The notes under the pieces were generated by a model. The model saw only the letters and a list, made by a program, of their open reading frames with translations, searched no databases and was not told the DNA's origin. From the IMG/VR virus record IMGVR_UViG_3300021168_000016, positions 61,422 to 125,421 of that record: a stretch of DNA of 64,000 nt; one strand, 5' to 3'. The position numbers and the translations under genes are program-made. Shown piece by piece: positions 1,723 through 62,578 of this stretch. The first letter of the stretch is position 1. Every line of letters starts with the position of its first letter. The DNA is from a virus.

Positions 1723-3349
1723 ATGTGGATCGTCAATCAAGGGAGACTACAAAATGCTTGGAGATTTGACTAGGCTGACAGATACACAACTGCTTGAATT
1801 CTTCATGTTGATCTTAAGCAAACCAGACAAAGAAATCTCACCATTCGATCACAGTGAAATGACTCAAATCAATGATGAATTCCTTAGACGGGGATTTGTT
1901 AGGGAAGCATACGCTGATTTACTGGCCAGTAAGGAGAAATAAGATGGACGAATGGTATTGCATGAATTGTGGGAAGCAACTAGTAAAAGTAAAGCTGGAT
2001 GAAGGTGATTTTCCTTGCTGCCTGGATTGTGCAATTAAGTATACAATTCATGGGACGGGAGTAGGCGATTCACTGTTCGTCGTAGGGGCTGACTCCCTTA
2101 AGATTACATTCTAAGGTTGCCCTATAGAAGCAGTGATAACCCCAGCCATTCGTAGCGATCTTGGTCGCAACCTAGATAAGAAAGGAGGATAGCCAATGCG
2201 GGAAAAGATGGTCATAGAAATTACTCCTGATCGCATAGAAAAGATGAAAAAGGTAGCAGTAGCCGTAGTCGAACTTATAGGTGCAAGCGACCTCACAGTG
2301 ATAGAAAAGTATCTCTGTCTTAAGTATCTGTCTGAGACGTTCACTGACACATATAAGATAGAGGCTGAAGTCTTTGAAGTCTCTACTGCAACTGATAGCA
2401 AAACTGCGAATTGAGGGACAAATGAAAAAAGAAGACGAACAGTTGAATAAACTTCAAGCAGCGGGAAATGATGTCGTCTCCCTCCTTAATGAAAGGGGAT
2501 TAACCCCAATTGAAATGCTGCTAGTCATCACAGCGCTCTACACCTCCATGGCACAGGCTCTTGGAGTAGTAGATCCCGTTGGAATGCTAGCTTCAAAGAT
2601 GAAAGACAACAAAGGTAGGAATTAAGGACGAATGCAGTGATCCTGCAGACCTGATGGCCATGACGATGGCCATCTTGAAGTAAATAGTTAAAACGGCTTA
2701 GTTAAAACTAAGGGAAGGAACATATGCCACGCAAACGACGAGTAATCGTCACAATGAAACCCGACAGCATGTACTATGCTGTCTCAATCGAAGTAGAGGG
2801 AAAGTCGAAAGGGAGTTGGGAAGCAGTTAGGCCGGCAAAGTTGATCCACAAAAGGAGAATCGAGGCGAACCGATTAGGGTATATGATTGCAAGTATGCTA
2901 GTCTTGTCCGCCAAGGAGAAGTGAAGCTGTTATATTAAGAGCTCATTGGTATCTTACTGTATTGAAAGACAAGATTTGGGGTTGACAAGCAAATGAAAGG
3001 ATCTCAGAATGGAACTCTACAGATGCCTCGACTGTGATTTCGTTGGTAATCTTGAGAAAGGAGGATGCTCCAAATGCTGTAGTCAGGCGACAATTTCTGA
3101 GGAAATTGTCAGGATTCACGATATAGAGTATGAAGTAATCAACACAGAAAGAGAAAGAGAAGAGGAATGTGCCTCTGTTCTAGTTGCAACTCCGCTCCCT
3201 GTAGCTGTAAGAAAGAAGAGTCAGTTAACTCTTCTTTTGATCATGATTTCCTCCGCTACCAGAACAAAATTCTCTTCAATGTCATCCAAAGGGGTAAAAT
3301 CCAGGTAGAGAGTAGCCCCAAACCAAACCCTTCTAAGTAGATACTGAAC

Positions 3350-3384
3350 TCAGCCGTCATGTTTCAAGTAATTATGACGGCTGA
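3350..3384. terminator. Hairpin/intrinsic terminator
   Basis: TCAGCCGTCAT / ATGACGGCTGA inverted repeat followed by TTTG, intergenic. Confidence 0.6.
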
Positions 3385-4615
3385 TTTGTGTATCTAAGGG
3401 AGAAGAAATGAATAACGATAGAGTCGTTCATGCGTTTCAGATGGTTATGTCAGTCCCTTTAGCACCTGATGATAAAGAAGAATACTTGCAGATGAAGCAC
3501 ACGGTACTCAATTGTCTTGCGATAATCGCAGAAGCAGGAAAGTTAGAAGTGGAGCTCAATCAAGCACTTGAAAACATAACCGCAATAGTAAAGGGATCAG
3601 AATTCCGTAACTTTATAAATGAGTATCACAAAGCTGAGAAAGGAAAGAAGGACCATGCTAACTAGCCTATTGAAGGCAGATGAACATCAATACATGAAAG
3701 AAATGATTGAAGAAGCAGAATATCAAAACTTCTGCCGAGAGCATCCTCACCTAAAGAAATTCACAGAGACATTTCGACGGATGAAATATCTCAGCAGAAC
3801 ACAGATTAACCGAAAGGTCATATGCCCAATCTTGGGCCATGACATACAAAGATGTACATTCTTTGAGGAATCCAGAGGAGTAGAGGCTTTCTGGTGTAAC
3901 CGCTGTGACCATTCTGGTCATAACAGATTGTACTGAGGTATATACAGGTAAGCAGCTATGAAACACTATTATTGGATTCTGGATGAGAATGGAAATCCAC
4001 TAAAAGTAAACGATCCTCTTACCTGGGCCGCTTGGTATGAGACAGCGGAGCGGCATATCGGTAATGATTTCCTTCCTGGCGGCATTCAGATTTCAACTGT
4101 CTTTCTGGGACTGGACCATAGCTTTTCCTTCTTGGAAGAAAGTCCTCCGGTTCTATGGGAGACAATGATATTCGGAGGAGAAGAAGATGGCTACCAGGAA
4201 CGCTACTGTACCAAAGAGGAAGCACTTGAAGGGCACAAAATAGCAGTCATGTTAGCACAGATGAGCTTGTCCTCAAAGGAAGTAGGAGGTAGCAATGACA
4301 ACACGTGAGTTCCATTTTATGCTGATAGGATTCAACATCGCCATGTGGCTCTGCATAGCTATCTCTTGGGTAGCGAGGAGAAGATTGAATCACAGGAAAT
4401 GTGAGCATTGTAAGAGAAAGTTTTGGACGAGGGATTCAACCTGCAAGGATCATCCTAATCTGTTCTGTACCGATTATTGTGAAACAAGCTACGGGATAGA
4501 TTTCCTAATCTCTGAAGGCATTCCTCCAGAGGTAGCTATCAAGATAGTATGTGCTCAAGAATCAAAGTAGTATAACCCCCAACCTCCAACCAAATCTATA
4601 AAGAGGATATAGAAG

Positions 4616-17755: not shown

Positions 17756-18094
17756 AAACTTCCTTCAGGAGCAGGCTTCGCAGAGCCTGCTAAGTGGGAG
17801 GTTTTTCTATGAATGAAAATGATTATTCTTTTGTGACAGTGAAGAGTATGGAAAAAGCAGTAAACCAGCTAGGTTCTGAAGAAATGGCTGCTCATCCTGA
17901 GATGCATGAATTAGTCAGTAAGATTACAGAAGCTATGAAGGCTTCCGATCTTGTCGCTTACTTTCTAAAACAGCTGATTAGAAATGCAGGTAAACAGGGC
18001 GAACTTACTAAGAATGTATTGACCGCGGCGATAGCTTTTACATCTGGTGTTAATGTTGGGATTAACATAACACTCAATGAAGAAAAGGAGAGGT

Positions 18095-19168
18095 ATGATG
18101 GCAAATCGTGAATCCATAAAGTTTGTATCTGCGGCTTTGGATGAGGACGGCAATGGAAATATTGTTCTGAGAGGAGTAATTGAACCTGCTTCACTCTATT
18201 TGTTAAAAGTAGGGGCTTATCAGCGGGAGATACTCCCAATCACAAAGATTAAAGATCTCGAAGAGGTCTTTAGTACAGGTGGACGGATTCCTGATATCGA
18301 TTTAGGTATGCGTGGAGGCAACTTCCTTGAGAAAGAAAGTGCATTCTTTCTACAGGACGACACATATATTATCGATGGCCTCCAGCGAGTTACAGCAGCA
18401 AAGAAAACAATAGAATCAGGAAAGGTTCCACGGTTGGGTGGCATTGTCCATTTCAACACCACAGAAGAATGGGAAAGAAATCGGTTCAGAATCCTCAATA
18501 CAATGAACACGAAGCTGTCACCAAATGTGCTGCTTCGTAACATGCAGACAGAATACAATGCAATAGAATTACTCTACACAATATCAAAGGATAAAAGCTT
18601 CGTACTTGGAGGGAAGGTTTGCTGGCAGCAGCGAATGAAGAGAGACGAATTAATCACAGCCTTAACAATGCTGAGAGTGGCGGGCATCATCCATGCAATT
18701 TATGGGCCGTCAAGAGGGGGAAACTTTAAGATAGCTGCGGCTCAGCTTGAGAAGATCTATAACAAGATAGGAAGGAACAACCTCCGTGAGAATATCAAAA
18801 CATTCTGGAGTATGATGGATCAAAGCTTTAAGTTGAGTTTTGTCACATATAAGGAGAGGCAAACCTTCCTAAAGTCTGCGTTTATACTAACGCTGGCTGG
18901 TGTAATCGGTGATCACGCTAACTACTGGAAAGACGCAAAGCTGTTCATCTCGAAAGAACAGATTCGACAGATTGCTCAGTTCCCAATCAACGATCCGCAG
19001 ATTGTCTCCTTAGCCAGTTATTCCATAGGGGGATCATCGGGAGATCTTCTATACCAGATTTTACTCAAGCATCTGAACAAAGGAAAGACAAAAAACCGAT
19101 TGATTTCTCACAGAAAGTCGCTTAGGCAGAGCAAGAAAGAACAAACACAGGAATTATCAGAGGAATAG
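18095..19168 (+). CDS. ParB/DGQHR-superfamily protein
   Basis: YQRE...IIDGLQRVTAA...F.ILNT motifs. Confidence 0.6.
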   Translation: MMANRESIKFVSAALDEDGNGNIVLRGVIEPASLYLLKVGAYQREILPITKIKDLEEVFSTGGRIPDIDLGMRGGNFLEKESAFFLQDDTYIIDGLQRVTAAKKTIESGKVPRLGGIVHFNTTEEWERNRFRILNTMNTKLSPNVLLRNMQTEYNAIELLYTISKDKSFVLGGKVCWQQRMKRDELITALTMLRVAGIIHAIYGPSRGGNFKIAAAQLEKIYNKIGRNNLRENIKTFWSMMDQSFKLSFVTYKERQTFLKSAFILTLAGVIGDHANYWKDAKLFISKEQIRQIAQFPINDPQIVSLASYSIGGSSGDLLYQILLKHLNKGKTKNRLISHRKSLRQSKKEQTQELSEE

Positions 19169-19772: not shown

Positions 19773-20294
19773 GTGCATCGTGTCAAGGACAGTAGTAATG
19801 TTTACGGCCTGGATTGGAAAGATAACAATCTCGACGTAACCTATAAACTCAACAAGAATTCAGACATGCCGGGAGAGACGTATCGTTATTTTGGGGTTCC
19901 TGAAGGAATATTTATTCTTTGCTTAGCCGCAAGATCTAAAGGGGAATACTTAAACACATGGGTAAAACAGGTGGGGTATAGATACGAGAAACTACCACAG
20001 GCCCATGCTATAGCGAAAGAAGTCGAAAAGGAAGAAAGTGCGGAAGTCGACGAGGTCATTAAGTATTTAGAAGAGAAAGGACTAGTCAGAACAGAACTAG
20101 ACGACAATATGGTTAGACGTGTCGTTGTAACAGGAGATATTGCTCATGAAATCATTAACTCTTTTGTCTCACTGCCTGAAAGAATGAAGAAAAGTAAGAA
20201 TGCTCTGCGGAGAATCGTTGAAGGTATACTCAGACAGAATCTTGATCCAATACCGAAAGCACTAGCAGAATATATTCGGGAGAGGAAGAAATGA
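19773..20294 (+). CDS. KTSC-domain protein
   Basis: SSNV.G..W....L.V.Y....YRYFGVP......L.A.SKGEYLN..VK..Y.YEK. Confidence 0.75.
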   Translation: MHRVKDSSNVYGLDWKDNNLDVTYKLNKNSDMPGETYRYFGVPEGIFILCLAARSKGEYLNTWVKQVGYRYEKLPQAHAIAKEVEKEESAEVDEVIKYLEEKGLVRTELDDNMVRRVVVTGDIAHEIINSFVSLPERMKKSKNALRRIVEGILRQNLDPIPKALAEYIRERKK

Positions 20295-20986
20295 GATGGT
20301 TCGGAGAAAACTGGGGTGCTCCTATCTGTAAGACGACTAAGCACGCGCCAACTCCTGAAGGTTTACCCTGTGCTCATAACTGTCAACACAGCATCAGAGA
20401 GGGAGATATTGGAGTGCTTATCCCTTATACAGGTCCTCCTTTAGTACATGGGCAATACATAATGGCAGCTGGAATACCGCACATTGGCTACCACCTCGTC
20501 TGTTTCTTTGATGAAATCGGTATACGAGGGAAAACACATGACTGAACACATAGAAAAGATATACGCTCCTTGGACAGAAAGTGAAGTTCACGCTCTGAAT
20601 AAGTACCAGGTTTCTGGGCTTATGCATCCATTCACATGCGGTGAAGAACACGGGAGAGAATCTGTTCTAGAAGCTACAGTAGATGGATGGGTATGTCCAG
20701 TGCCCCTTTGCTATTACACCCAAGATTGGTGCTACAGCTGGATGATAAATATTGGAAAGGAAGAGGTATGACGGAAGTACATCTTGATGCAATAATGCCA
20801 AAGGAGCATGTACAGGAATTTCTGCAATTAATGCGTACATTTGATCTGACACATCCTGACTGTCATTTTGAGGTAACAACGAATGATACTAATATGACAG
20901 CTGAGGAAGCAAGAGCAATCCTAGAAAAGATTCAACCGCCATTCTCAAGTTTGAAGGAATATAAGGGAGGGAATTCATAATTTTAG

Positions 20987-21001
20987 AGTAGCGGTATATA
21001 T
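20987..21001 (+). promoter_or_regulatory. Phage-conserved promoter motif AGTAGCGGTATATA
   Basis: Identical 14-mer also at 35581 and 40083, each just upstream of an operon. Confidence 0.65.
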
Positions 21002-21008
21002 AAAATAT

Positions 21009-21479
21009 ATGGTCTACTTCATTCAAAGTGCCTGCCCAAAAGGGCTTATCAAGATAGGTAATTCGGATAAACCCTTAACCAGGTTGAAAGAACTTCAAAC
21101 AGCTAATGGTTACAAACTGACATTCCTGAAGATTATTCAGGGAGGTTATCAGGAAGAATTAATCACAAAGAAGAGATTCAGGCAGTTCCGTGTTTTGGAG
21201 GGCGGAACCGAGTGGTTTAAACCAGAAAAGGAACTACTCGATTACATCAAATCACTGGTATTAGAACAGGCATTTGAAATGCCTACTACTTACCAAGAAA
21301 TACCTGGAAAGTATGATCCGAGTATTATATCACAAACAGCACTACTTTCTTTGTCTAGTCGAAGACAACTTTCAAAGAGGACTGAGATAAGCAATGAACA
21401 ACTTCTTTCAACGGTGAAGAAGCAAGAATTACCTTCACGAATTGATTTTTCGTTACAAATCAAACTAAGGAGAATATGA
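21009..21479 (+). CDS. GIY-YIG nuclease (T5orf172/MUG113 type)
   Basis: VYFIQ...LIKIG.S..P..RLKELQTAN...EWFKP motifs. Confidence 0.85.
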   Translation: MVYFIQSACPKGLIKIGNSDKPLTRLKELQTANGYKLTFLKIIQGGYQEELITKKRFRQFRVLEGGTEWFKPEKELLDYIKSLVLEQAFEMPTTYQEIPGKYDPSIISQTALLSLSSRRQLSKRTEISNEQLLSTVKKQELPSRIDFSLQIKLRRI

Positions 21480-21480
21480 T

Positions 21481-22134
21481 ATGAGTACAGCAGAAGTAAT
21501 TCAGTTTGAGGAATCTGAATCTCAAGAGATTTCTCTTACAAAGATGTATGAAATCGCAGTAGAATCACTAAGTCCCGTCGGATTCGGACGATACTATGAA
21601 CGAGAATATCCGGCAACACCTGTGGAACAAAACAATAAAGAGACGTATGAAGAACGGACTTGGATGAAACGCCTCTGGATAAACGAAGACGGTAAAGTCT
21701 TCATTCCTGGAGTATCATTCAAAGGGGCGTATGTAAACGCTGCGGGACAGAATATGCTCCCTGATAGAGTTCCAAATACTGGGAATAAAGGGACTTACAC
21801 GAAACACTTCGCTGCTGGTTTCCATGTTATCAACAATGTTGTTACTGAATATACTGAAGCAGATGTTGTCAGGAATAAATGGGGAAAGTGGTTACATGTT
21901 CCCGCAAATGCACAACGAGGAGGGAAGACAAGGGTTATGCGCTGCTTCCCAACAATCCCAAAGTGGGCCGGCAAACTACAGGTAATCACCCATGATCCTT
22001 GTTTGACTAAAGATATCCTAAAGCGTTTCGGAGATGCAGCAGGGTTAGTAATTGGCGTCGGTTCTCTTCGTGTCCAAAACAACGGAATGTGGGGGCAATT
22101 CCGAGTAGTTTCTGTAGAAGAAAAAGCTTTTTAA
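21481..22134 (+). CDS. Stand-alone RAMP/Cas7-like RNA-binding protein (candidate guide-RNA effector)
   Basis: ESLSP, VFIPGVSFKGAYVNAA (RAMP IPGxSxKG) and C-terminal glycine loop IGVGSLRVQNNGMWGQFRV; no other cas genes nearby. Confidence 0.7.
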   Translation: MSTAEVIQFEESESQEISLTKMYEIAVESLSPVGFGRYYEREYPATPVEQNNKETYEERTWMKRLWINEDGKVFIPGVSFKGAYVNAAGQNMLPDRVPNTGNKGTYTKHFAAGFHVINNVVTEYTEADVVRNKWGKWLHVPANAQRGGKTRVMRCFPTIPKWAGKLQVITHDPCLTKDILKRFGDAAGLVIGVGSLRVQNNGMWGQFRVVSVEEKAF

Positions 22135-22440
22135 GATTCGATGCGATGCAATACGCTGAAATATGATAGGATTTGATGGAATATAATCTAATCGGATTAG
22201 ATTTGATAAGATACGAAGTATTTTTATACTGGAATTATGATAGGATCAGATCAAATCTGATGGAATCAAATCGGATAAAATAAGATCGAATGTGATCTGA
22301 GAGAATGAGATTTAATTTGATAAGATATGAAGTATTTTTATACTGGAATTATCATGCGATGAGATAAGATGTAATATAATCTGATACCATCAGCCAAGAT
22401 CTGTTTTGATGGGACCGGATGCGATATGATACGAGATTTT
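22135..22440 (+). ncRNA. Pentamer-coded guide array (RAT-NN), 3 units
   Basis: Strict 5-nt phase, mostly GAT/AAT + variable NN (16, 18 and 16 pentamers); units separated by repeated GATAAGATAYGAAGTATTTTTATACTGGAATTAT (22205-22238, 22319-22352) containing an AGTAT-TTTT-ATACT hairpin. Confidence 0.75.
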
Positions 22441-22459
22441 TCACTTTCGGAGAATCTCT

Positions 22460-23164
22460 GTGCTACAAGACTCCCTCGACAAAATAATCGGAACATACTT
22501 TGCAGGAATTACTCGATCAAGTTTTACTTACAAAGACAGAGTCTACCCACCACAAAATCTTTTAGTAAGTCATTTGTTGTTTAGAGGATACACTTGTCCT
22601 GAAAATTGTGGAGGGTGTTGTCCGCGATTTTCTCTGGATTACCTGACCTCAGAGTACTGTCCGATGCCACAAGTCAAACTCAGGGAAGTTGACTTTAATG
22701 GGAGTAAGATTCCCATTATATCCGATATGCAACTTGATCATCAGGACCACCATTGCAAAAATCTGACTAAATCAAACGGCAGATGCGGAATTCACGGAAA
22801 CCAACCATTTTCATGTGATTTTGAATTATGTCGATTTCTAACCTTCAATGACAGAAATGTATTAACTTCCAAATTATTCGGTAGAGGCTGGGCTTTTCTT
22901 CGAACCGATAACGAAAGAGGAGCTCTTTGTGAGATGCTTCCAGTCACTAAAGAAACGATTGACGAAGTCATAAGGAAGCTGATCCGATTAAAGCAGTGGG
23001 CAGAGTATTTCGGCGTCGATCATTGCTTAGACGCTATAATCCAATGGGCAAGATCAGGATCAGGAATGGATCTTCTTATCCCGAAACACAAAAAGGTGGG
23101 ACTAAATATAAAAAGCATTTCCGGCCCGCAAGAAGAAGACCCGTTAATTCAAATAGAGTTATGA
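22460..23164 (+). CDS. YkgJ-like CxxxCxxCC Zn/Fe-cluster protein
   Basis: CPENCGGCC...HHCKNL...GRCGIHGNQPFSC. Confidence 0.6.
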   Translation: MLQDSLDKIIGTYFAGITRSSFTYKDRVYPPQNLLVSHLLFRGYTCPENCGGCCPRFSLDYLTSEYCPMPQVKLREVDFNGSKIPIISDMQLDHQDHHCKNLTKSNGRCGIHGNQPFSCDFELCRFLTFNDRNVLTSKLFGRGWAFLRTDNERGALCEMLPVTKETIDEVIRKLIRLKQWAEYFGVDHCLDAIIQWARSGSGMDLLIPKHKKVGLNIKSISGPQEEDPLIQIEL

Positions 23165-23613
23165 AAAAACTACCTATTAGAAACAGAAAACTCCCTAAGA
23201 AGGGGCTGCTTCGCAAGAAAAAGGAATTCTGTAAAACAAGCCACCCATTGTGGAATGTTTACTCTAGTATGGACACTAGGTGTAATAAGGATAATAGTTC
23301 CGACTACCGCCACTATGGCGGACGAGGAATTAAAATGTGTGAAAGATGGTCGTCTTCACTTAAAAATGATAAAGGCTTCTGGAATTTTATAGAAGATATG
23401 GGTCCAAGACCTGAAGGTCGTACACCTTCAGGAAAACGGCCTGCTTTCACACTAGAACGTAGAGATAATAATCTAGGTTACAGCAAAAAAAACTGCTACT
23501 GGGCACCTTGGAAGGAACAAGCCAATAATAGACGAAAACCTAAAAGCATCGCTCAACTGGCTAGAGCCAAAGCGTTTACTAATGTTATGAGATTAGGATT
23601 CTACGGTAGTTAA
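23161..23613 (+). CDS. HNH-type homing endonuclease-like protein
   Basis: YRHYGGRGIKMCERW...F..DMGPRP...TLERRDNNLGYSKKNCYWA..KEQANNR. Confidence 0.75.
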   Translation: MKKLPIRNRKLPKKGLLRKKKEFCKTSHPLWNVYSSMDTRCNKDNSSDYRHYGGRGIKMCERWSSSLKNDKGFWNFIEDMGPRPEGRTPSGKRPAFTLERRDNNLGYSKKNCYWAPWKEQANNRRKPKSIAQLARAKAFTNVMRLGFYGS

Positions 23614-23764
23614 AGAAGGTAGGCTTGAACATAAAGAGTATCGGACTCGTAGAAGAAGAACCTCTCATCCAAATTACACATTAGTAATCATGAATTTCGG
23701 ATTTTTCATCTGATGATGAAGCACGAATCGTGATGTTTACAAATAACAGAAAAGGAGAAGAAAA

Positions 23765-24046
23765 ATGCCGGAAGATAGAATGAAAGTTATTGCAGCTAAA
23801 CTGCTCAACCTATTCGGTGCTAGAGGCCAGCACTGGATAAGAGGTGAAGAAAGCAACGGTAATGGCGACTACTGCCTGATAGGTGGTATGAAAGAGTTAA
23901 ACCTTACTCATGAAATGAAAACGTTACAAAGAGCTGTACGTGAAAAGACAAAGCATACTTCCATCGCAGCATTTAACGACCAGCACTACTGGCCTACCAT
24001 CAAAGACTTTCTCTGCAGTTACATCCGTCCGAAAGTAAAGAAATAA
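23765..24046 (+). CDS. Hypothetical protein (W..G...YCLIG...FND family; related to 38464-38811)
   Basis: Shared C-[LA]-[IL]-G and ND motifs. Confidence 0.5.
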   Translation: MPEDRMKVIAAKLLNLFGARGQHWIRGEESNGNGDYCLIGGMKELNLTHEMKTLQRAVREKTKHTSIAAFNDQHYWPTIKDFLCSYIRPKVKK

Positions 24047-24058
24047 AAGGAGGCTGTC

Positions 24059-24475
24059 ATGCCACTAAATGTACCACTTCTACGCGAAATTCAGAAGCAG
24101 ATACTGGAGAAGCCCAACACTTTCTTCATGAGAAATTGGATAAGAAGAAAAAAGTTTGAGGGTTCTACCTACATTAATGATGAAGGACTCAGTACTAGAT
24201 ACGCTGAGTGTGGAACTGTTGGCTGTATAGCTGGGACCGCCTGCCTGATAATGGAGCGTGAAGGGAAACTTTCCGAACTTAACGGCGCAGATGACATCAA
24301 AAGCGGGGCAATTGACCTACTCGGCCTTAAGGACGTAGGAAATTCACTCTTCTACGTGGATAACTGGGACTGTGAAATTCGTAAGGAGTACAGAGAAGCA
24401 CCAACAGCTAAGTGTCGGGCTGTTGCGGCGTGTAAACAGATCGATCTGTACATCGAACAACACAAAGGAGAATAG
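24059..24475 (+). CDS. Tandem paralogue 1 (MPLNVxLLR...CGTxxCIAG family)
   Basis: Aligns by eye with the three following ORFs. Confidence 0.75.
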   Translation: MPLNVPLLREIQKQILEKPNTFFMRNWIRRKKFEGSTYINDEGLSTRYAECGTVGCIAGTACLIMEREGKLSELNGADDIKSGAIDLLGLKDVGNSLFYVDNWDCEIRKEYREAPTAKCRAVAACKQIDLYIEQHKGE

Positions 24476-24477
24476 CT

Positions 24478-24924
24478 ATGCCAAAGTTAAACGTACCTCT
24501 ACTGAGAGAAATACAGAAGCAGATCCTCAGGGAACCAAATGGCTTCTTCATGAGATCTTGGATACGCAGAAGAAGTCATGATAATGAAGAATTCTTTTCT
24601 GGCGATATTGTAGCAGGAGGATCAGATCTACAAAGATTTCCTGAGTGTGGTACAGCTGCATGTATTGGAGGCTGGGCAGTATTACTTTCCGGAGGCACAT
24701 ATAACGAGAACGTAGAACCTATAGCCAAATCCCTTCTAGGCCTTTCTAGTACTTGGCTCTTCCAAGTTTCGACTTGGGATAGAGATCTCCAAGGAAAGTA
24801 TTGGTCTGAGCCATCAGTCGAGTGTCGTGCAGCTATCGCTGCTGAACAAATCGAACGTGTCATTCAACGCTACGGAGAAAAGGAGAGTGAAAGTGAAAAA
24901 GTCACTAAATGTGAAGCTACTTAG
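24478..24924 (+). CDS. Tandem paralogue 2
   Basis: LNVPLLREIQKQIL..P..FFM..W...CGTAACIGGWA. Confidence 0.75.
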   Translation: MPKLNVPLLREIQKQILREPNGFFMRSWIRRRSHDNEEFFSGDIVAGGSDLQRFPECGTAACIGGWAVLLSGGTYNENVEPIAKSLLGLSSTWLFQVSTWDRDLQGKYWSEPSVECRAAIAAEQIERVIQRYGEKESESEKVTKCEAT

Positions 24925-25309
24925 AAAGGTGCAGAAGCATATCATGAAGGAGCCTAAGCGTCTCCTCATGGGAGAGTGGCTAGTCACCAAATCTAAGAAA
25001 GTTCCCCAGTTTGAGAACGATGCAGGCGAATGGGAACATTTTCCGAAGTGTAATACAGCTGCCTGTATAGCCGGATGGGCAGTTATGTTACATGATAAAC
25101 ATCCTCCACGAGGAAAATCAATTGAGACTAGAGCTACCAAGATATTGGGTGGTAGCTCTATGGACAGCTTGTTTTATACCTCTCTGTGGAAGCTAGAGCA
25201 CGAGTTCAACACAGCAGAAACTCCTCGTCAACGAGCTAAGATAGCCGTTAAAGAGATCGATCACTTCATCAAAGAACATGAGAAGAAAAAAAGGAGTTTA
25301 GGTAAGTAG
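24893..25309 (+). CDS. Tandem paralogue 3
   Basis: LNVKLLRKVQKHIM..P...M..W...CNTAACIAGWA; GTG start after AAGGAG. Confidence 0.7.
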   Translation: MKKSLNVKLLRKVQKHIMKEPKRLLMGEWLVTKSKKVPQFENDAGEWEHFPKCNTAACIAGWAVMLHDKHPPRGKSIETRATKILGGSSMDSLFYTSLWKLEHEFNTAETPRQRAKIAVKEIDHFIKEHEKKKRSLGK

Positions 25310-25344
25310 CTTTGGAAGTTAAATAAGGATGAAAGGAAAATCAA

Positions 25345-25800
25345 ATGCCGCTAAATGTTAAACTGCTTAGAAAGATACAGAAACGTATCCTAACCCAACC
25401 ACAGGCATTCTTTATGCACGACTGGATACGTAGAAAAGAGTATTCCTCCAACAATACATTCCAGAATCCAGACACAGGTAAAGTGACAGAATTTACCACC
25501 TGTGGTACTGCTGGCTGTATAGCAGGATGGGCTATCCTGTTAACAGAGAAGAAAGGAGATGCGAAACTCATCTGGTCTAGCCAAATCCAGGAGAAGGCCA
25601 CAGAGATACTTGGCCTAAGCCCCGGTGAGGACCTCATATTTGGTTCACCAAACTGGGGGACAGAACTTAGCGATGCTTACGAAAATGCTAAGTCTGATCT
25701 TTGTCGTGCTGCTGTAGCGGTGAAAGCAATAGACAACCTGATTGAGCGGCACAAGGCAAAGAAACCTAAGGCTGTATTAAGCTCCTTTGAGAGCTTCTAA
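25345..25800 (+). CDS. Tandem paralogue 4
   Basis: MPLNVKLLRKIQKRIL..P..FFM..W...CGTAGCIAGWA. Confidence 0.75.
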   Translation: MPLNVKLLRKIQKRILTQPQAFFMHDWIRRKEYSSNNTFQNPDTGKVTEFTTCGTAGCIAGWAILLTEKKGDAKLIWSSQIQEKATEILGLSPGEDLIFGSPNWGTELSDAYENAKSDLCRAAVAVKAIDNLIERHKAKKPKAVLSSFESF

Positions 25801-43364: not shown

Positions 43365-43650
43365 GATTTGACATGGCCTGACCCGGTTAGGTAGGGTAAG
43401 GTTAGCTCCGGTGACACCAGGTTAGGTGCGGCTGGCAAGGATTAAGATTTGACACGGTGAGGTGTGGTCGCGTATGGCGGGGTAAGGTTTATCTTGGCGA
43501 GGTAAGGTTAGGCTGGCTAGGTGAGGTTCGTTGCGGTACGGTTAGCCACACTTTGGCTAGGTAGGGTAGGACGCGGTTAGGCTGACGTGGTGGAGCAGGG
43601 CACGGCTTGAAATGGCTCGGTGTGGTAGGGTTGGGCGTGGACCGGCAAGG
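43362..43650 (+). ncRNA. Pentamer-coded guide array (GGY-NN), 4 units
   Basis: 5-nt phase, mostly GGT/GGC + NN, 12-13 pentamers per unit; leader TAAGATTTGACA (43362, 43443), junction GGCT, terminal GGCAAGG (43434, 43644). Confidence 0.75.
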
Positions 43651-43696
43651 CCGTTCTATTTTTGGTGTCAACTCGAGGACGAAGAGGAAAAAGAAT

Positions 43697-48660: not shown

Positions 48661-48747
48661 GGAAATGACGCGGCTAGGTTGGGCGCTGCGTGGACTGGTA
48701 TGGTAAGGTCCGGCGCGGTTGGGTATGGTAAGGTTAGGCAGGCAAGG
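48661..48747 (+). ncRNA. Single GGY-NN guide unit
   Basis: GAC-start, 14 pentamers, GGCAGGCAAGG end, as in the 43.4-kb array. Confidence 0.75.
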
Positions 48748-48759
48748 AAAGGTAAATCA

Positions 48760-49227
48760 ATGGGGGAAGATCGAGAACCAACTTTCAAGGCTGAAAAGTA
48801 CCGCTGGTTGAAGCAGAGAGTTCGACTTGATCTTCTCTACATTGACGAAGATATTCAGGAACTACCTATTCTTCTTCAGGAAGCAGGAGAAAACACAGCA
48901 GTAGCACTAGAGCGAAGAGAATCAACGAAGGCAGATCTTGAGACACAGGAAGCAGTAACAGCAAATAGGCTTAGGCGGGATGAGTACAATGGAAAGAAGT
49001 CAGAGGCTGCTATCGCAAGCATGATACCGCTTGATGAAGACTACCAAAGGATCCAAAAAGATCTAAGCGAAGCTAGACTAGATGCTTCACTCTGGATGAA
49101 TTTGATGGATACGTTACGCTCTAAATCGTCTCTAGTCAGAGCTTCAGCAGATCTAGTACAAGCAGGGTTTATTTCTACCGTTCACTACACCGAAAAGAGA
49201 AAACGAGACTTGAGAACGCCGTCATGA
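48760..49227 (+). CDS. UvsY-like recombination mediator
   Basis: Helical protein with SEAAIASMI..DEDY; located between clamp loader and SSB. Confidence 0.55.
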   Translation: MGEDREPTFKAEKYRWLKQRVRLDLLYIDEDIQELPILLQEAGENTAVALERRESTKADLETQEAVTANRLRRDEYNGKKSEAAIASMIPLDEDYQRIQKDLSEARLDASLWMNLMDTLRSKSSLVRASADLVQAGFISTVHYTEKRKRDLRTPS

Positions 49228-49354: not shown

Positions 49355-50401
49355 ATGAGTAGCTTCAAATATGCGCCTCGCAGCAACGAGGCATGGGCAA
49401 AGCGTGAGAAGGGAAGCACCTTCGAGGGCTTTATCAAAGATCAGTACATGGGTTTCTCACCTAAGAAGGATAACTGGATTCGCTTCCTTCCTCCGACATG
49501 GGATAATCCATCTCACTATGGTATCGATATTTGGGTTCATTATTCTGTTGGACCTGAGAACGCAAACGTACTCTGTCTCTATAAGATGACAGGGAAGCCA
49601 TGTCCTGTCTGCGAAGCACATGCAGTCGCTGAAGCTGCGGGACGTGAAGATGCAAACAATCTAAAGGCAACTCGTCGAGTGCTTGTCTGGGTTGTCAATA
49701 GGAAAGAAGAGAAGGATAGGAAGCCGCAATATTGGGCACAACCCCAAACCGTAGATAAAGAGGTCACTAAGATCTGTCGTGATAGGGTTACAGGACAGCT
49801 TTACTACATCGACCATCCGGATCAAGGATATGATGTAACCTTTGATAAAGATGGTGAAGGGATGACCACTAAGTACAACGGCTTCCAAATCGCTAGGCAG
49901 GCATCATCTGTTGAAGATGTCTATCTAGACTATGCCTTGGCCAATCCACTGCCTGAAATCTTGCAGTGGCGATCGTATGATGAAGTTAAAGACTTGTTTG
50001 AAGGCACAGCCGGACCCACTACTCAGCTTCATCCGGGACAGGCATCACATCCTATAGCTGAGGTGCCGAAACCAATTGCTACAGGGCCGGTGGTTGTACC
50101 AACTCCTTTGCCCCAACCGCCACCGCCCCAAGTCAACACAGTTGTATTACCTCCACCTGCTGCTCAGTTCTGCGCCTTAGAAGTTGAGTACCAAGGTAAC
50201 ATGTTCGGATGTAATTACGCACCCGGACATTCAGGAGATCATCACTATCAACGGTACCTGCGTCAGGCACAGCCACAAGCGCCTGTTGTTCCACCCCATG
50301 TAGCTTCTCCGGGTAATTCAGGAGTAGTACCCCAAACAACACAATCAGCAGCTGATCGTGCTGCTGGATTGAGAGATCGGTTTAAGACCGGACCGAGGTA
50401 A
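49355..50401 (+). CDS. ssDNA-binding protein (T4 gp32-like)
   Basis: NWIRFLPP, VHY, CPVCE, DPDQGYD-like segment; Pro-rich tail. Confidence 0.8.
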   Translation: MSSFKYAPRSNEAWAKREKGSTFEGFIKDQYMGFSPKKDNWIRFLPPTWDNPSHYGIDIWVHYSVGPENANVLCLYKMTGKPCPVCEAHAVAEAAGREDANNLKATRRVLVWVVNRKEEKDRKPQYWAQPQTVDKEVTKICRDRVTGQLYYIDHPDQGYDVTFDKDGEGMTTKYNGFQIARQASSVEDVYLDYALANPLPEILQWRSYDEVKDLFEGTAGPTTQLHPGQASHPIAEVPKPIATGPVVVPTPLPQPPPPQVNTVVLPPPAAQFCALEVEYQGNMFGCNYAPGHSGDHHYQRYLRQAQPQAPVVPPHVASPGNSGVVPQTTQSAADRAAGLRDRFKTGPR

Positions 50402-61208: not shown

Positions 61209-62578
61209 TATCTCCAAGCAAAATCGAGCAGGCTGTCCTTAGCCTCCTGTGTTTCTCTACAGAACAGGCATCGCTGTTTGCATTAAAGGTTACAGACCAG
61301 AAGTTCTTTACCAATAGGACAAACAAAGCTATCGCCAAAACAGCCTTAGATTACATCTCTAAGTATAGTACTGCCCCACAGATGCAATTGGAAGCTTTAC
61401 TTGAAACAGAATTACGTAGAGGCGAAGAAGGAATTCTCTTACGGAAGACTATAGAAGAGTTGCAGATTCTACTCCCATCGCTTGATCCAAAATTCATCTA
61501 CGAGGAGCTCGATCAGTTCCTTGAAAGCCAGACATTAACGCTCCACTTAACCCAAGCCTTAGAATTGCTACAGGAAGGAGATCTTGCGAAGGCTAAAGAG
61601 ACAATGTATAAACAGTCTCTGCGGGTAGCAGAAGGCACACCAGGTATCTGGTTAACCGATCCCAGACAATCCTTAAAGTTTATGGATGCCGATGAAGAAG
61701 GTGATTTCTTCTCATCTGGGATCGATTATCTAGATACTAAAGGAATCAGGCCCGATAGGAAGACCTTCTTATTGATGATGGCAGCAGCTAAGAAAGGGAA
61801 GAGTTGGTTCCTAGTACAGTGTGGTAGATCAGGAATACAGTTTAGACATAAGGTACTGCATGTCACACTTGAACTTAGCGAAGATAAAACATCACGAAGA
61901 TATATTCAGTCTCTCTTTGGATTAACCTCTTCTGTAGCAATGGAGATTAAGACTACAATATTCCAATATGATCGGGCAACAGAATCAGTTCGATTTGACG
62001 TAGCTAATTTCCAACGTAATTCTGTCTATGCAGAGAAAAAGGATATTCAAGATAAGCTTTTATGGAGCAGAGGTGAGTTGCTGATTAAAGAATTCCCCAC
62101 GGGTACGCTGTCAACCGAACACCTACTCCTATATCTGGATACCCTAAAGCGTGAAAGGGGCTTTGTTCCCGACCTAATAATACTTGATTATGCAGACCTT
62201 ATGAAACTAGATGCAAGGGAACTACGCATTGACACAGGGCGGTTGTACAAAGAGCTGCGCGGTATCTCTGGGTTAGGCTATGCTTTGGTATCAGCCTCCC
62301 AAGGCAACAGAGATTCGGCAAATGCAAAGGTTGTGGACGTAACCAATGTTGCTGAAGACTGGTCTAAGATAGGAACAGTGGACGTAATACTTACGTATAA
62401 CCAAACTGCTGCAGAGAAACAGCTGGGACTTGCGAGGATATTCGTAGCAGGAGGAAGGGATGCTGAAGATAGATTTATGACATTGATCTCGCAGAGTTAC
62501 GATACGGGACAATTCGCTATTTCAAGTACGCCAATGAATCTAGAACTGGCTGACAAACTTGCCGCAATGACAAGTTAG
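61205..62578 (+). CDS. DnaB-like replicative helicase
   Basis: AAKKGKS Walker A, VTLELS, IKEFPTG, ILDYADLM, SASQGNR, AEDWSK. Confidence 0.85.
   Translation: MISPSKIEQAVLSLLCFSTEQASLFALKVTDQKFFTNRTNKAIAKTALDYISKYSTAPQMQLEALLETELRRGEEGILLRKTIEELQILLPSLDPKFIYEELDQFLESQTLTLHLTQALELLQEGDLAKAKETMYKQSLRVAEGTPGIWLTDPRQSLKFMDADEEGDFFSSGIDYLDTKGIRPDRKTFLLMMAAAKKGKSWFLVQCGRSGIQFRHKVLHVTLELSEDKTSRRYIQSLFGLTSSVAMEIKTTIFQYDRATESVRFDVANFQRNSVYAEKKDIQDKLLWSRGELLIKEFPTGTLSTEHLLLYLDTLKRERGFVPDLIILDYADLMKLDARELRIDTGRLYKELRGISGLGYALVSASQGNRDSANAKVVDVTNVAEDWSKIGTVDVILTYNQTAAEKQLGLARIFVAGGRDAEDRFMTLISQSYDTGQFAISSTPMNLELADKLAAMTS

Follow-up and report, generated by a model that had tools for sequence, protein, structure and literature searches.

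The stretch examined here (the window) is 64,000 nucleotides (nt) of viral DNA, the right-hand 64 kb of a 125,421-bp IMG/VR virus record (IMGVR_UViG_3300021168_000016, positions 61,422 to 125,421). About a third of the way along, it carries a gene for a 217-amino-acid (aa) protein, a run of five-base repeats on the same strand and a gene for a YkgJ-like cysteine-cluster protein (Table 1). The protein and the repeats resemble a recently described class of RNA-guided systems, VIPR (Viral Interference Programmable Repeat), and the third unit of the repeat array (U3) spells a motif of the YkgJ-like family. The subject of this analysis is the identity of this array and the probable target of U3.

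Table 1. Features of the putative VIPR locus and its immediate surroundings (positions are those of the window)
Feature	Position	Strand	Remarks
GIY-YIG-type gene	21009..21479	+	just 5' of vipr; PF13455 E 1.4e-6, PF10544 E 6e-5 (T5orf172/MUG113 domains)
vipr, 217-aa Cas7-like RAMP (predicted)	21481..22134	+	homologous to phiSUSP1 Vipr; G-loop GVGSLRVQNNGMWGQF
Predicted vrRNA unit U1	22135..22236	+	16 RAT-NN pentamers (22135-22214), then 22-nt tail GAAGTATTTTTATACTGGAATT (22215-22236)
Predicted vrRNA unit U2	22237..22350	+	19 NN-RAT pentamers; final base overlaps 22-nt tail (22329-22350)
Predicted vrRNA unit U3	22351..22458	+	17 pentamers (22351-22435); tail hairpin 22433-22458
YkgJ-like cysteine-cluster gene	22460..23164	+	GTG start; PF03692 E 2e-4
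U3-aligned stretch of the phage's own YkgJ-like gene, NDRNVLTSKLFGRG	22847..22888	+	core LTSKLFGR 22862-22885
HNH endonuclease gene	23161..23613	+	phrog_3377, phrog_374, E about 1e-29; context

The array occupies the interval between the vipr stop codon, which ends one base before it (stop at 22134, array from 22135), and the GTG start of the YkgJ-like gene, and consists of three blocks of strict 5-nt periodicity. Each pentamer combines a GAT- or AAT-like triplet (R-A-T, the scaffold) with two further bases (NN), and these dinucleotides are diverse: 14 pentamers are variable in U1, 16 in U2 and 14 in U3, those of U3 spanning 22356 to 22422 (positions 2 to 15 of 17). The complete NN string of U3 is AT GC GA AA GT AT CT AC CA AA CT TT GG CG GC AT AC. 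Off-consensus scaffold triplets number 1 of 16 in U1, 2 of 19 in U2 and 5 of 17 in U3 (CAT, CAT, GCC, GTT and GAC). The 22-nt tail is identical after U1 and U2 and is predicted to form a 5-bp hairpin (-2.6 kcal/mol; z -0.6, no better than shuffled sequences) with no evident pseudoknot, and the different tail of U3 is predicted to form a 10-bp hairpin (-11.3 kcal/mol, z -2.5), the most stable of the three units. A sliding score for 5-nt periodicity singles out four places across the 125-kb record, one of them the array. TRF called no tandem repeat within the array, no Rfam family reached its gathering score anywhere in the window, and blastn of positions 20000 to 24000 against GenBank phages gave no match.

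The 217-aa protein had no match in Pfam, and its best NCBIfam model was Csm5, which scored 15.5 bits where the cut-off is 38.3. Its AlphaFold2 model (pLDDT 91, pTM 0.83) has a Cas7/Csm3-like fold with an RRM core, a G-loop and a thumb, and the best Foldseek match in the PDB was a type VII Cas7 (8z4l_F, E 1.3e-7), followed by Csm3 and Cmr chains, with top E values of 1e-7 to 1e-5. The C-terminal half of the Vipr protein of phage phiSUSP1, G-loop included, matched a profile of the window's family at 43.9 bits, and the phiSUSP1 region at 27.5 to 29.5 kb has the published layout of one vrRNA (the guide RNA of VIPR), vipr, vap and three vrRNAs. By homology and modelled structure, the 217-aa protein is a Vipr homologue with a Cas7-like fold, and the profile search found one Vipr in the 125-kb record. 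Relatives are encoded on at least 526 metagenome stretches, and a period-5 array stands right after the vipr stop codon in 59 of the 75 relatives with enough downstream sequence. A SUSP1-vap-like gene lies 3' of the array in 36 of 65 related loci, and phiSUSP1 Vap scored 29.5 bits against this 36-member family. Of 80 other loci with Vipr, one has a GIY-YIG gene nearby, on the opposite strand; the GIY-YIG gene of the window could belong to the system as an accessory or could be a free-standing endonuclease with no relation to it. When viral contigs were scanned with the YkgJ-like protein alone or with Vipr alone, no relatives came up, and tblastn of Vipr against GenBank phages gave no match. 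A RAT-NN scan (nine units) returned at least 118 loci; among the matches listed, all runs had no more than five distinct dinucleotides and were simple satellite repeats, so that no second RAT-type array was found by that scan.

VIPR systems are known from three preprints, of which the available parts are drawn on here. An approximately 20-kDa Vipr RAMP acts together with vrRNAs of 9 to 16 YNNGG repeats and a constant 3' tail; NN pairs with double-stranded DNA under a 1-nt-skip rule, with the skip at the wobble position, and the result is programmable transcriptional repression with natural targets in competing phages and satellites (bioRxiv 10.64898/2026.04.26.720920). Seven types are distinguished, of which types III to V have predicted nucleases; the nuclease-bearing systems are host-encoded and lie in defence islands, the tested phage systems repress transcription, and the available parts report no self-hits at the 80% NN-match threshold (bioRxiv 10.64898/2026.04.26.720920). 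The same source names the alternative scaffolds NNNGG, YNNNG and NNNNG and also “a related consensus” (fig. S17), and describes internal degeneracy as frequent in sequences still called vrRNAs. Structures show Vipr filaments on pentamer-repeat vrRNAs with one protomer per repeat, in which G1 is read by H17 and D177, G2 is read by R138 and W178 and the Y3 pocket excludes purines (bioRxiv 10.64898/2026.04.26.720927). Solo vrRNAs, and guides directed against relatives' VIPR loci that have lower self-match scores, are also described (bioRxiv 10.64898/2026.10.15.759431).

The R-A-T scaffold departs from GGY, and the Vipr protein encoded beside it departs in a corresponding place. In 64 related loci whose array lies on the same strand as Vipr, the prevailing triplet is GGC in 29, GAC in 19, GTC in 7, GGT in 2 and GTT and GAT in one each. 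Covariation was analysed in 58 distinct Vipr proteins with arrays (metagenome contigs, loci L299-L378), and the covarying residue is the one after G-x-G in the G-loop, at the position of phiSUSP1 D177. Arginine at this position is paired with a scaffold middle base of G (33 cases), T (4) or A (3), and serine, phenylalanine or tyrosine is paired with a middle A in 17 of 18 (Fisher 1e-10 for the association, uncorrected for phylogeny). The window Vipr has S-L in its G-loop, the middle base of its scaffold is A, and its nearest metagenome relatives use GAC or GAT; for these reasons, the RAT array fits its neighbouring Vipr. The “different scaffold chemistry” attributed to this array in a preliminary description of the DNA is thereby borne out: the scaffold is RAT rather than GGY, and the G-loop residue is of the middle-A type.

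The preliminary description had read U3 by a gapped code in which NN represents codon positions 1 and 2 and the third base is skipped. The present tests agree with that code, which is the same as the published VIPR rule. Read in this way, as NNx codons, U3 again gave A-[DE]-[KN]-V-[IM]-L-T-[HQ]-[KN]-L-[FL]-G-R-A, and the fit to the adjacent YkgJ-like gene was reproduced as claimed, with 7 of 8 core residues compatible (LTxKLFGR, 22862 to 22885) and 5 of 14 dinucleotides exact. Over the whole aligned stretch, 8 of 14 residues are compatible. Within the core, 4 of 8 of the phage's own dinucleotides match those of U3, the others being broken by the codons TTA, TCC, TTA and AGA: both core leucines are encoded by TTA, arginine is encoded by AGA and serine replaces glutamine. 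When the order of the dinucleotides was shuffled, 14 of 100,000 permutations reached 7/8 against the phage's own gene (P 1.4e-4), and the P value for the total of 8/17 was 0.004. A six-frame search of the 125-kb record found two places at 7/8, one of which is the phage's own YkgJ-like site, and by a log-odds segment score, the own-gene match ranks top on its strand genome-wide, with P 0.006 within 1.5 kb on either side (2000 shuffles). Taken alone, the P values for the own gene are only suggestive, because the choice was free among units, orientations and neighbours. At the DNA level, the own match is 36% (5/14) and the phage's own record offers at most 7/14 exact, which is under the 80% threshold.

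Comparison with the YkgJ-like family is the stronger test. The YkgJ-like protein has 420 database homologues at an E value of 1e-3 or below, and the 120 homologues listed were used for the protein-level family test. One YkgJ-like homologue (P0011) and a Vipr relative (P0123) seem to be encoded on one contig of 7121 bp. An alignment of 27 homologues has the consensus LTQKLFGRGWA, in which L139, G141, R142, G143 and W144 are invariant, and U3 spells the family consensus, including the glutamine that the phage's own protein has as serine. Because U3 spells this family's motif, it is probably aimed at the YkgJ-like gene of relatives. The LTQKLFGR allele predicted by the preliminary description exists, in that 32 of the 120 homologues fit the 8-residue core at 8/8, and five (P0003, P0004, P0005, P0007 and P0058) fit at 11/14 at the protein level. 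The expectation that the match would withstand permutation was also confirmed, since none of 3000 shuffled guides reached 11/14 against the 120 homologues (the maximum was 9); the 8/8 window was reached by 1 of 3000.

The same allele was found in DNA. Of 59 IMG/VR loci that encode homologues, 29 yielded the site to an anchor motif, and in six of these 29 (L120, L142, L143, L145, L147 and L149), the codon pattern CTN-ACN-CAR-AAR-CTN-TTY-GGN-CGN, foreseen as the form of the rival allele, is exact. A motif-free scan of both strands of the 59 loci found 27 positions matching U3 at 6/8 or better; the eight best of the 27 coincide in their place within the YkgJ-like gene, and the other eight units of the record never exceed 6/8 in these loci. 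Phages with the rival allele had been predicted to lack the cassette, and no Vipr-family protein is encoded in any of the 59 loci; they are therefore cassette-less at the YkgJ-like site.

The interval from 22135 to 22458 is very probably a three-unit vrRNA array of a VIPR system that includes the adjacent vipr, with U3 most likely directed against rival YkgJ-like genes. Filament assembly, pairing with a 1-nt skip and transcriptional silencing are carried over to the window system, by analogy, from the available parts of the preprints. On each transcript, Vipr would assemble into a filament with one protomer for every pentamer, burying the R-A-T triplet and exposing the two variable bases. Each exposed dinucleotide would pair with two bases of double-stranded DNA and pass over the next target base; where the target is coding sequence, this omitted base would be the wobble position. 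The sequence specified by U3 would be (D)x(V)(I)LTQKLFGR, which in related phages is the YkgJ-like family's best-conserved motif, and the U3 dinucleotides would pair with the template strand of YkgJ-like genes that have the motif in CTN/CGN codons, so blocking transcription. The gene silenced would be that of co-infecting or resident relatives, and the phage's own copy, 400 nt downstream, would escape because its codons are TTA, TTA and AGA where the rival allele has CTN, CTN and CGN, and because serine replaces glutamine. The RAT array is presumably transcribed and loaded, U3 is presumably still active, and rival YkgJ-like genes are presumably its real target.

Proximity of a guide to a partial match is not confined to U3. 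Three of the nine units of the record have their best genome-wide match within 500 nt, with neighbour P values of 0.006 for U3, 0.0065 for the unit at 48.7 kb (opposite strand) and 0.0005 for the unit at 49.9 kb; about 0.13 would be expected at P<0.007 in the 18 tests made in the record. Opposite-strand scores refer to that strand's own frames and not to a reverse-complemented guide on the array strand. The wider test covered 405 units of other IMG/VR and metagenome loci in four strand and orientation configurations within 1.5 kb on either side. Of the 1620 combinations of unit and configuration, 37 had P ≤0.01 where 16.2 were expected (Poisson tail 6.5e-6) and 21 had the minimum P where 5.4 were expected; 29 distinct units of the 405 were involved. 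This test supersedes an earlier sense-only neighbour test, in which six units had P<0.01 against 2.7 expected. At the DNA level, 268 GGY units compared with 1.8 Mb of their own IMG/VR loci showed no excess over shuffles, with 96 matches at 7/8 (103 shuffled) and 2 at 8/8 (1 shuffled). A guide beside a diverged copy of its target is thus a real but minority pattern, with a modest excess over chance. Individual units of other phages fit the directly adjacent gene, 100 to 450 nt away: L183 11564-11633, L261 567-636 and 1242-1316, L251 2371-2440 and L276 (minus strand) 1349-1408. None of 300 shuffles matched the score of the L183, L251 and L276 units or of L261 1242-1316, and 1 of 300 matched that of L261 567-636 (P 0.007).

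The preliminary description had inferred a homing-like logic in which guides sit next to the locus that they defend. The excess of guides beside their targets supports the first element of this proposal, though in 29 of 405 units only; it is compatible with a guide linked to an immune allele and does not demonstrate homing by cleavage. Rather than defending the adjacent locus, the guide would attack rival alleles, and the phage's own allele escapes at 5/14. Some guides may form, together with the recoded immune allele of their own target, a linked poison-antidote pair in a minority of VIPR loci, a tentative suggestion that is more doubtful than not.

Several results weigh against U3 as an active guide for rival YkgJ-like genes. 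The best exact DNA match over 14 positions in the 5.8 Mb of loci examined is 9/14 (64%; L127, L130, L142 and L154), which shuffled guides also attain in that collection and which falls short of 80% of NN. The best foreign fit at the protein level, 11/14, is 79%, and the five homologues concerned are known as proteins only. A 10-dinucleotide pattern (VILTQKLFGR with CTN/CGN) had no exact match in viral_contigs and none in genome_contigs, and no targets of U1 and U2 were found in the record or in the 5.8 Mb of fetched loci. U3 is also the most degenerate of the three units, with four off-consensus triplets inside the matching core, and perturbed GGY motifs abolished silencing in the published system (bioRxiv 10.64898/2026.04.26.720920). 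The codon-based argument for self-avoidance is weak, as two TTR leucine codons and one AGR arginine codon together have a probability of 0.055 under the codon usage of the phage. Finally, a search of the record for a SUSP1-type vap found no homologue (best E 0.14), and for this sequence no RNA run was listed; two soil-metagenome DNA runs contain it, one of them perhaps its source and the other with three short identical pieces of the stretch.

These points bear on four other explanations of the match. The degenerate scaffold of U3, its tail unlike that common to U1 and U2 and the lack of a match at 80% or more among the sequences searched would all be consistent with a decaying, non-functional vrRNA whose match records a past target. 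Drift would, however, erode the dinucleotides as fast as the scaffold, and these still give an 8/8 contiguous core and 11/14 overall; moreover, the U3 tail is the most stable hairpin of the three, and the available parts of the first preprint report frequent internal degeneracy in called vrRNAs (10.64898/2026.04.26.720920). Decay is therefore unlikely, although it is the most credible of the four. Chance resemblance, through free choice of units, orientations, neighbours and window sizes, could draw on the 9/14 equalled by shuffled guides in the 5.8-Mb collection and on the behaviour of random 8-dinucleotide windows: one such window each of U1 and U2 gave 9 and 11 matches in IMG/VR viral contigs, in unrelated open reading frames or non-coding frames. 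It would have to produce a fit to the family that none of 3000 shuffles attained, with matches at one homologous site, six loci at 8/8 and eight control units that never exceed 6/8, and with two more units of the record having their top genome-wide match within 500 nt, under a pairing rule that is experimentally established (bioRxiv 10.64898/2026.04.26.720920). This explanation is hardly credible. The same informativeness of the dinucleotides led to abandonment of a TRAP-like triplet-repeat leader RNA with meaningless spacers, as NN spells a motif of the neighbouring family far beyond chance. A type III or type VII CRISPR-Cas system was also considered and rejected, as no CRISPR-type direct repeats occur in 21900-22700 and the neighbouring genes are GIY-YIG, YkgJ-like and HNH.

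The remaining two explanations concern the position of U3 beside the phage's own gene. RNA-guided homing would require Vipr-U3 to recruit the GIY-YIG or HNH protein and to cut rival YkgJ-like alleles, repair then copying the cassette with the recoded allele. The guide does lie 400 nt from the target homologue, between GIY-YIG and HNH genes, guides beside partial matches are commoner than chance and VIPR types III to V have predicted nucleases (bioRxiv 10.64898/2026.04.26.720920), but the rarity of GIY-YIG genes near Vipr (1 of 80 other loci) argues against recruitment. In addition, the nuclease-bearing VIPR types described in the available parts of that preprint are host-encoded and the tested phage systems repress transcription, and such phages often have free-standing endonuclease genes, two of them annotated in phiSUSP1 away from its VIPR locus. 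Homing is accordingly improbable. Autoregulation in cis, with U3 tuning its own downstream YkgJ-like gene by weak partial binding, might be suggested by the adjacency of guide and gene on the same strand and by the 7 of 8 residues compatible with the phage's own gene. It is the DNA level that pairs, however, and there the own match is 5/14 overall and 4/8 in the core; foreign alleles fit U3 better than the phage's own allele, and, in the available parts of the preprints, self-hits at 80% or more are absent (10.64898/2026.04.26.720920) and self-match scores are lower (10.64898/2026.10.15.759431). Such tuning is very improbable. Silencing of rival YkgJ-like genes by U3 is therefore retained as the best explanation.

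The putative system of the window can be placed among those already characterised, as far as the available parts of the preprints describe them. It shares with phiSUSP1-type VIPR a small homologous RAMP, an array directly 3' of its gene, a phage-borne locus, units of about 14 to 16 variable pentamers each with a 3' tail, the correspondence of NN with target codon positions 1 and 2 with the wobble position skipped, and an unmatched own genome. It differs in its R-A-T scaffold (GAT/AAT), without a conserved second G, in place of GGY, in the S-L of its G-loop, where phiSUSP1 has D-W, the reported readers of G1 and G2, and in its tail, a predicted 22-nt mini-hairpin; furthermore, it has no SUSP1-type vap in the record, has a GIY-YIG gene upstream instead and is known here from sequence alone. 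Like the kin-targeting guides of the SUSP1 family (10.64898/2026.10.15.759431), U3 would target the relatives' version of a locus, with a lower self-match, but whereas SUSP1-family targets are vipr genes, other vrRNAs and satellite genes, the probable target here is an ordinary conserved gene of which a copy lies beside the guide. The class 1 CRISPR Cas7 backbones (Csm3, Cmr4 and type VII Cas7) have a similar fold, one protomer per fixed guide step and a guide-target duplex that is interrupted periodically. VIPR advances in steps of 5 nt, displacing three bases of the guide and skipping one of the target, and CRISPR in steps of 6 nt, with one base flipped per strand; unlike class 1 CRISPR systems, the window has no CRISPR repeats, other cas genes or adaptation genes.

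T-even-like phages carry free-standing homing endonucleases and undergo intronless homing. As in that process, the cassette lies beside a conserved gene with GIY-YIG and HNH flanks, and rival alleles would be sensitive and the carrier allele resistant through sequence changes. Unlike in intronless homing, an RNA code would take the place of a protein in recognition, and Vipr is not consistently accompanied by the nuclease genes.

The record also contains three GGY-NN arrays without an adjacent RAMP gene, at 43367-43659 and 48664-48764 of the window and at 49920-50018 of the genome, the last on the minus strand 11.4 kb before the window. They are like SUSP1-family solo vrRNAs in lacking an adjacent vipr and, on the basis of the available descriptions, unlike them in that the single Vipr detected in the record would not be expected to read GGY arrays. 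They have no visible reader, because this sole Vipr has an A-type G-loop. These arrays may be solo vrRNAs for another phage's Vipr or may be served by an unrecognised RAMP. Elsewhere, a GGY-NN scan (eight units) matched at least 120 viral contigs (L179-L298, IMG/VR). The 285 GGY units parsed are richest in the dinucleotides AA, GA, GC, AT and GT, an order that is the one expected of sense-strand codon positions 1 and 2. In one of these contigs (L181, minus strand, 2297-3641), the vipr gene is flanked on both sides by GGC-NN units, and the downstream units are separated by a tail of approximately 55 nt with a GC-rich hairpin.

Around the cassette, the ATG of the HNH gene overlaps the TGA of the YkgJ-like gene, and the phage's copy of the inferred target gene sits between a GIY-YIG and an HNH gene, both of endonuclease type. 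At 24059-25800 lie four small paralogous genes in tandem (138 to 160 aa) that share MPLNVxLLRxIQKxIL...CGTxxCIAGW, and a few genes 5' of the cassette, 18077-19168 encodes a protein of 363 aa that weakly matches a ParB-like family (phrog_1033, E 7e-4).

VIPR is already in print (April-June 2026), and the window system is therefore no new kind of system and opens no new field. Its additions are the R-A-T scaffold, the G-loop covariation and the excess of guides beside targets, although the supplements of the preprints may already show RAY scaffolds or adjacent targets. A natural scaffold without a conserved G at the second position (R-A-T/C), paired with an S-L Vipr, is a lead for work on VIPR, and the covariation of G-loop and scaffold could guide the engineering of orthogonal Vipr-scaffold pairs. 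The guide-beside-target statistics bear on the avoidance of self-targeting and on the spread of VIPR systems. If the poison-antidote arrangement is real, relatives and recombinants without the recoded allele would be silenced and the pair would spread among kin without a nuclease; the R-A-Y scaffold subclade, in which the scaffold is set by one G-loop residue, would then be one lineage with this arrangement.

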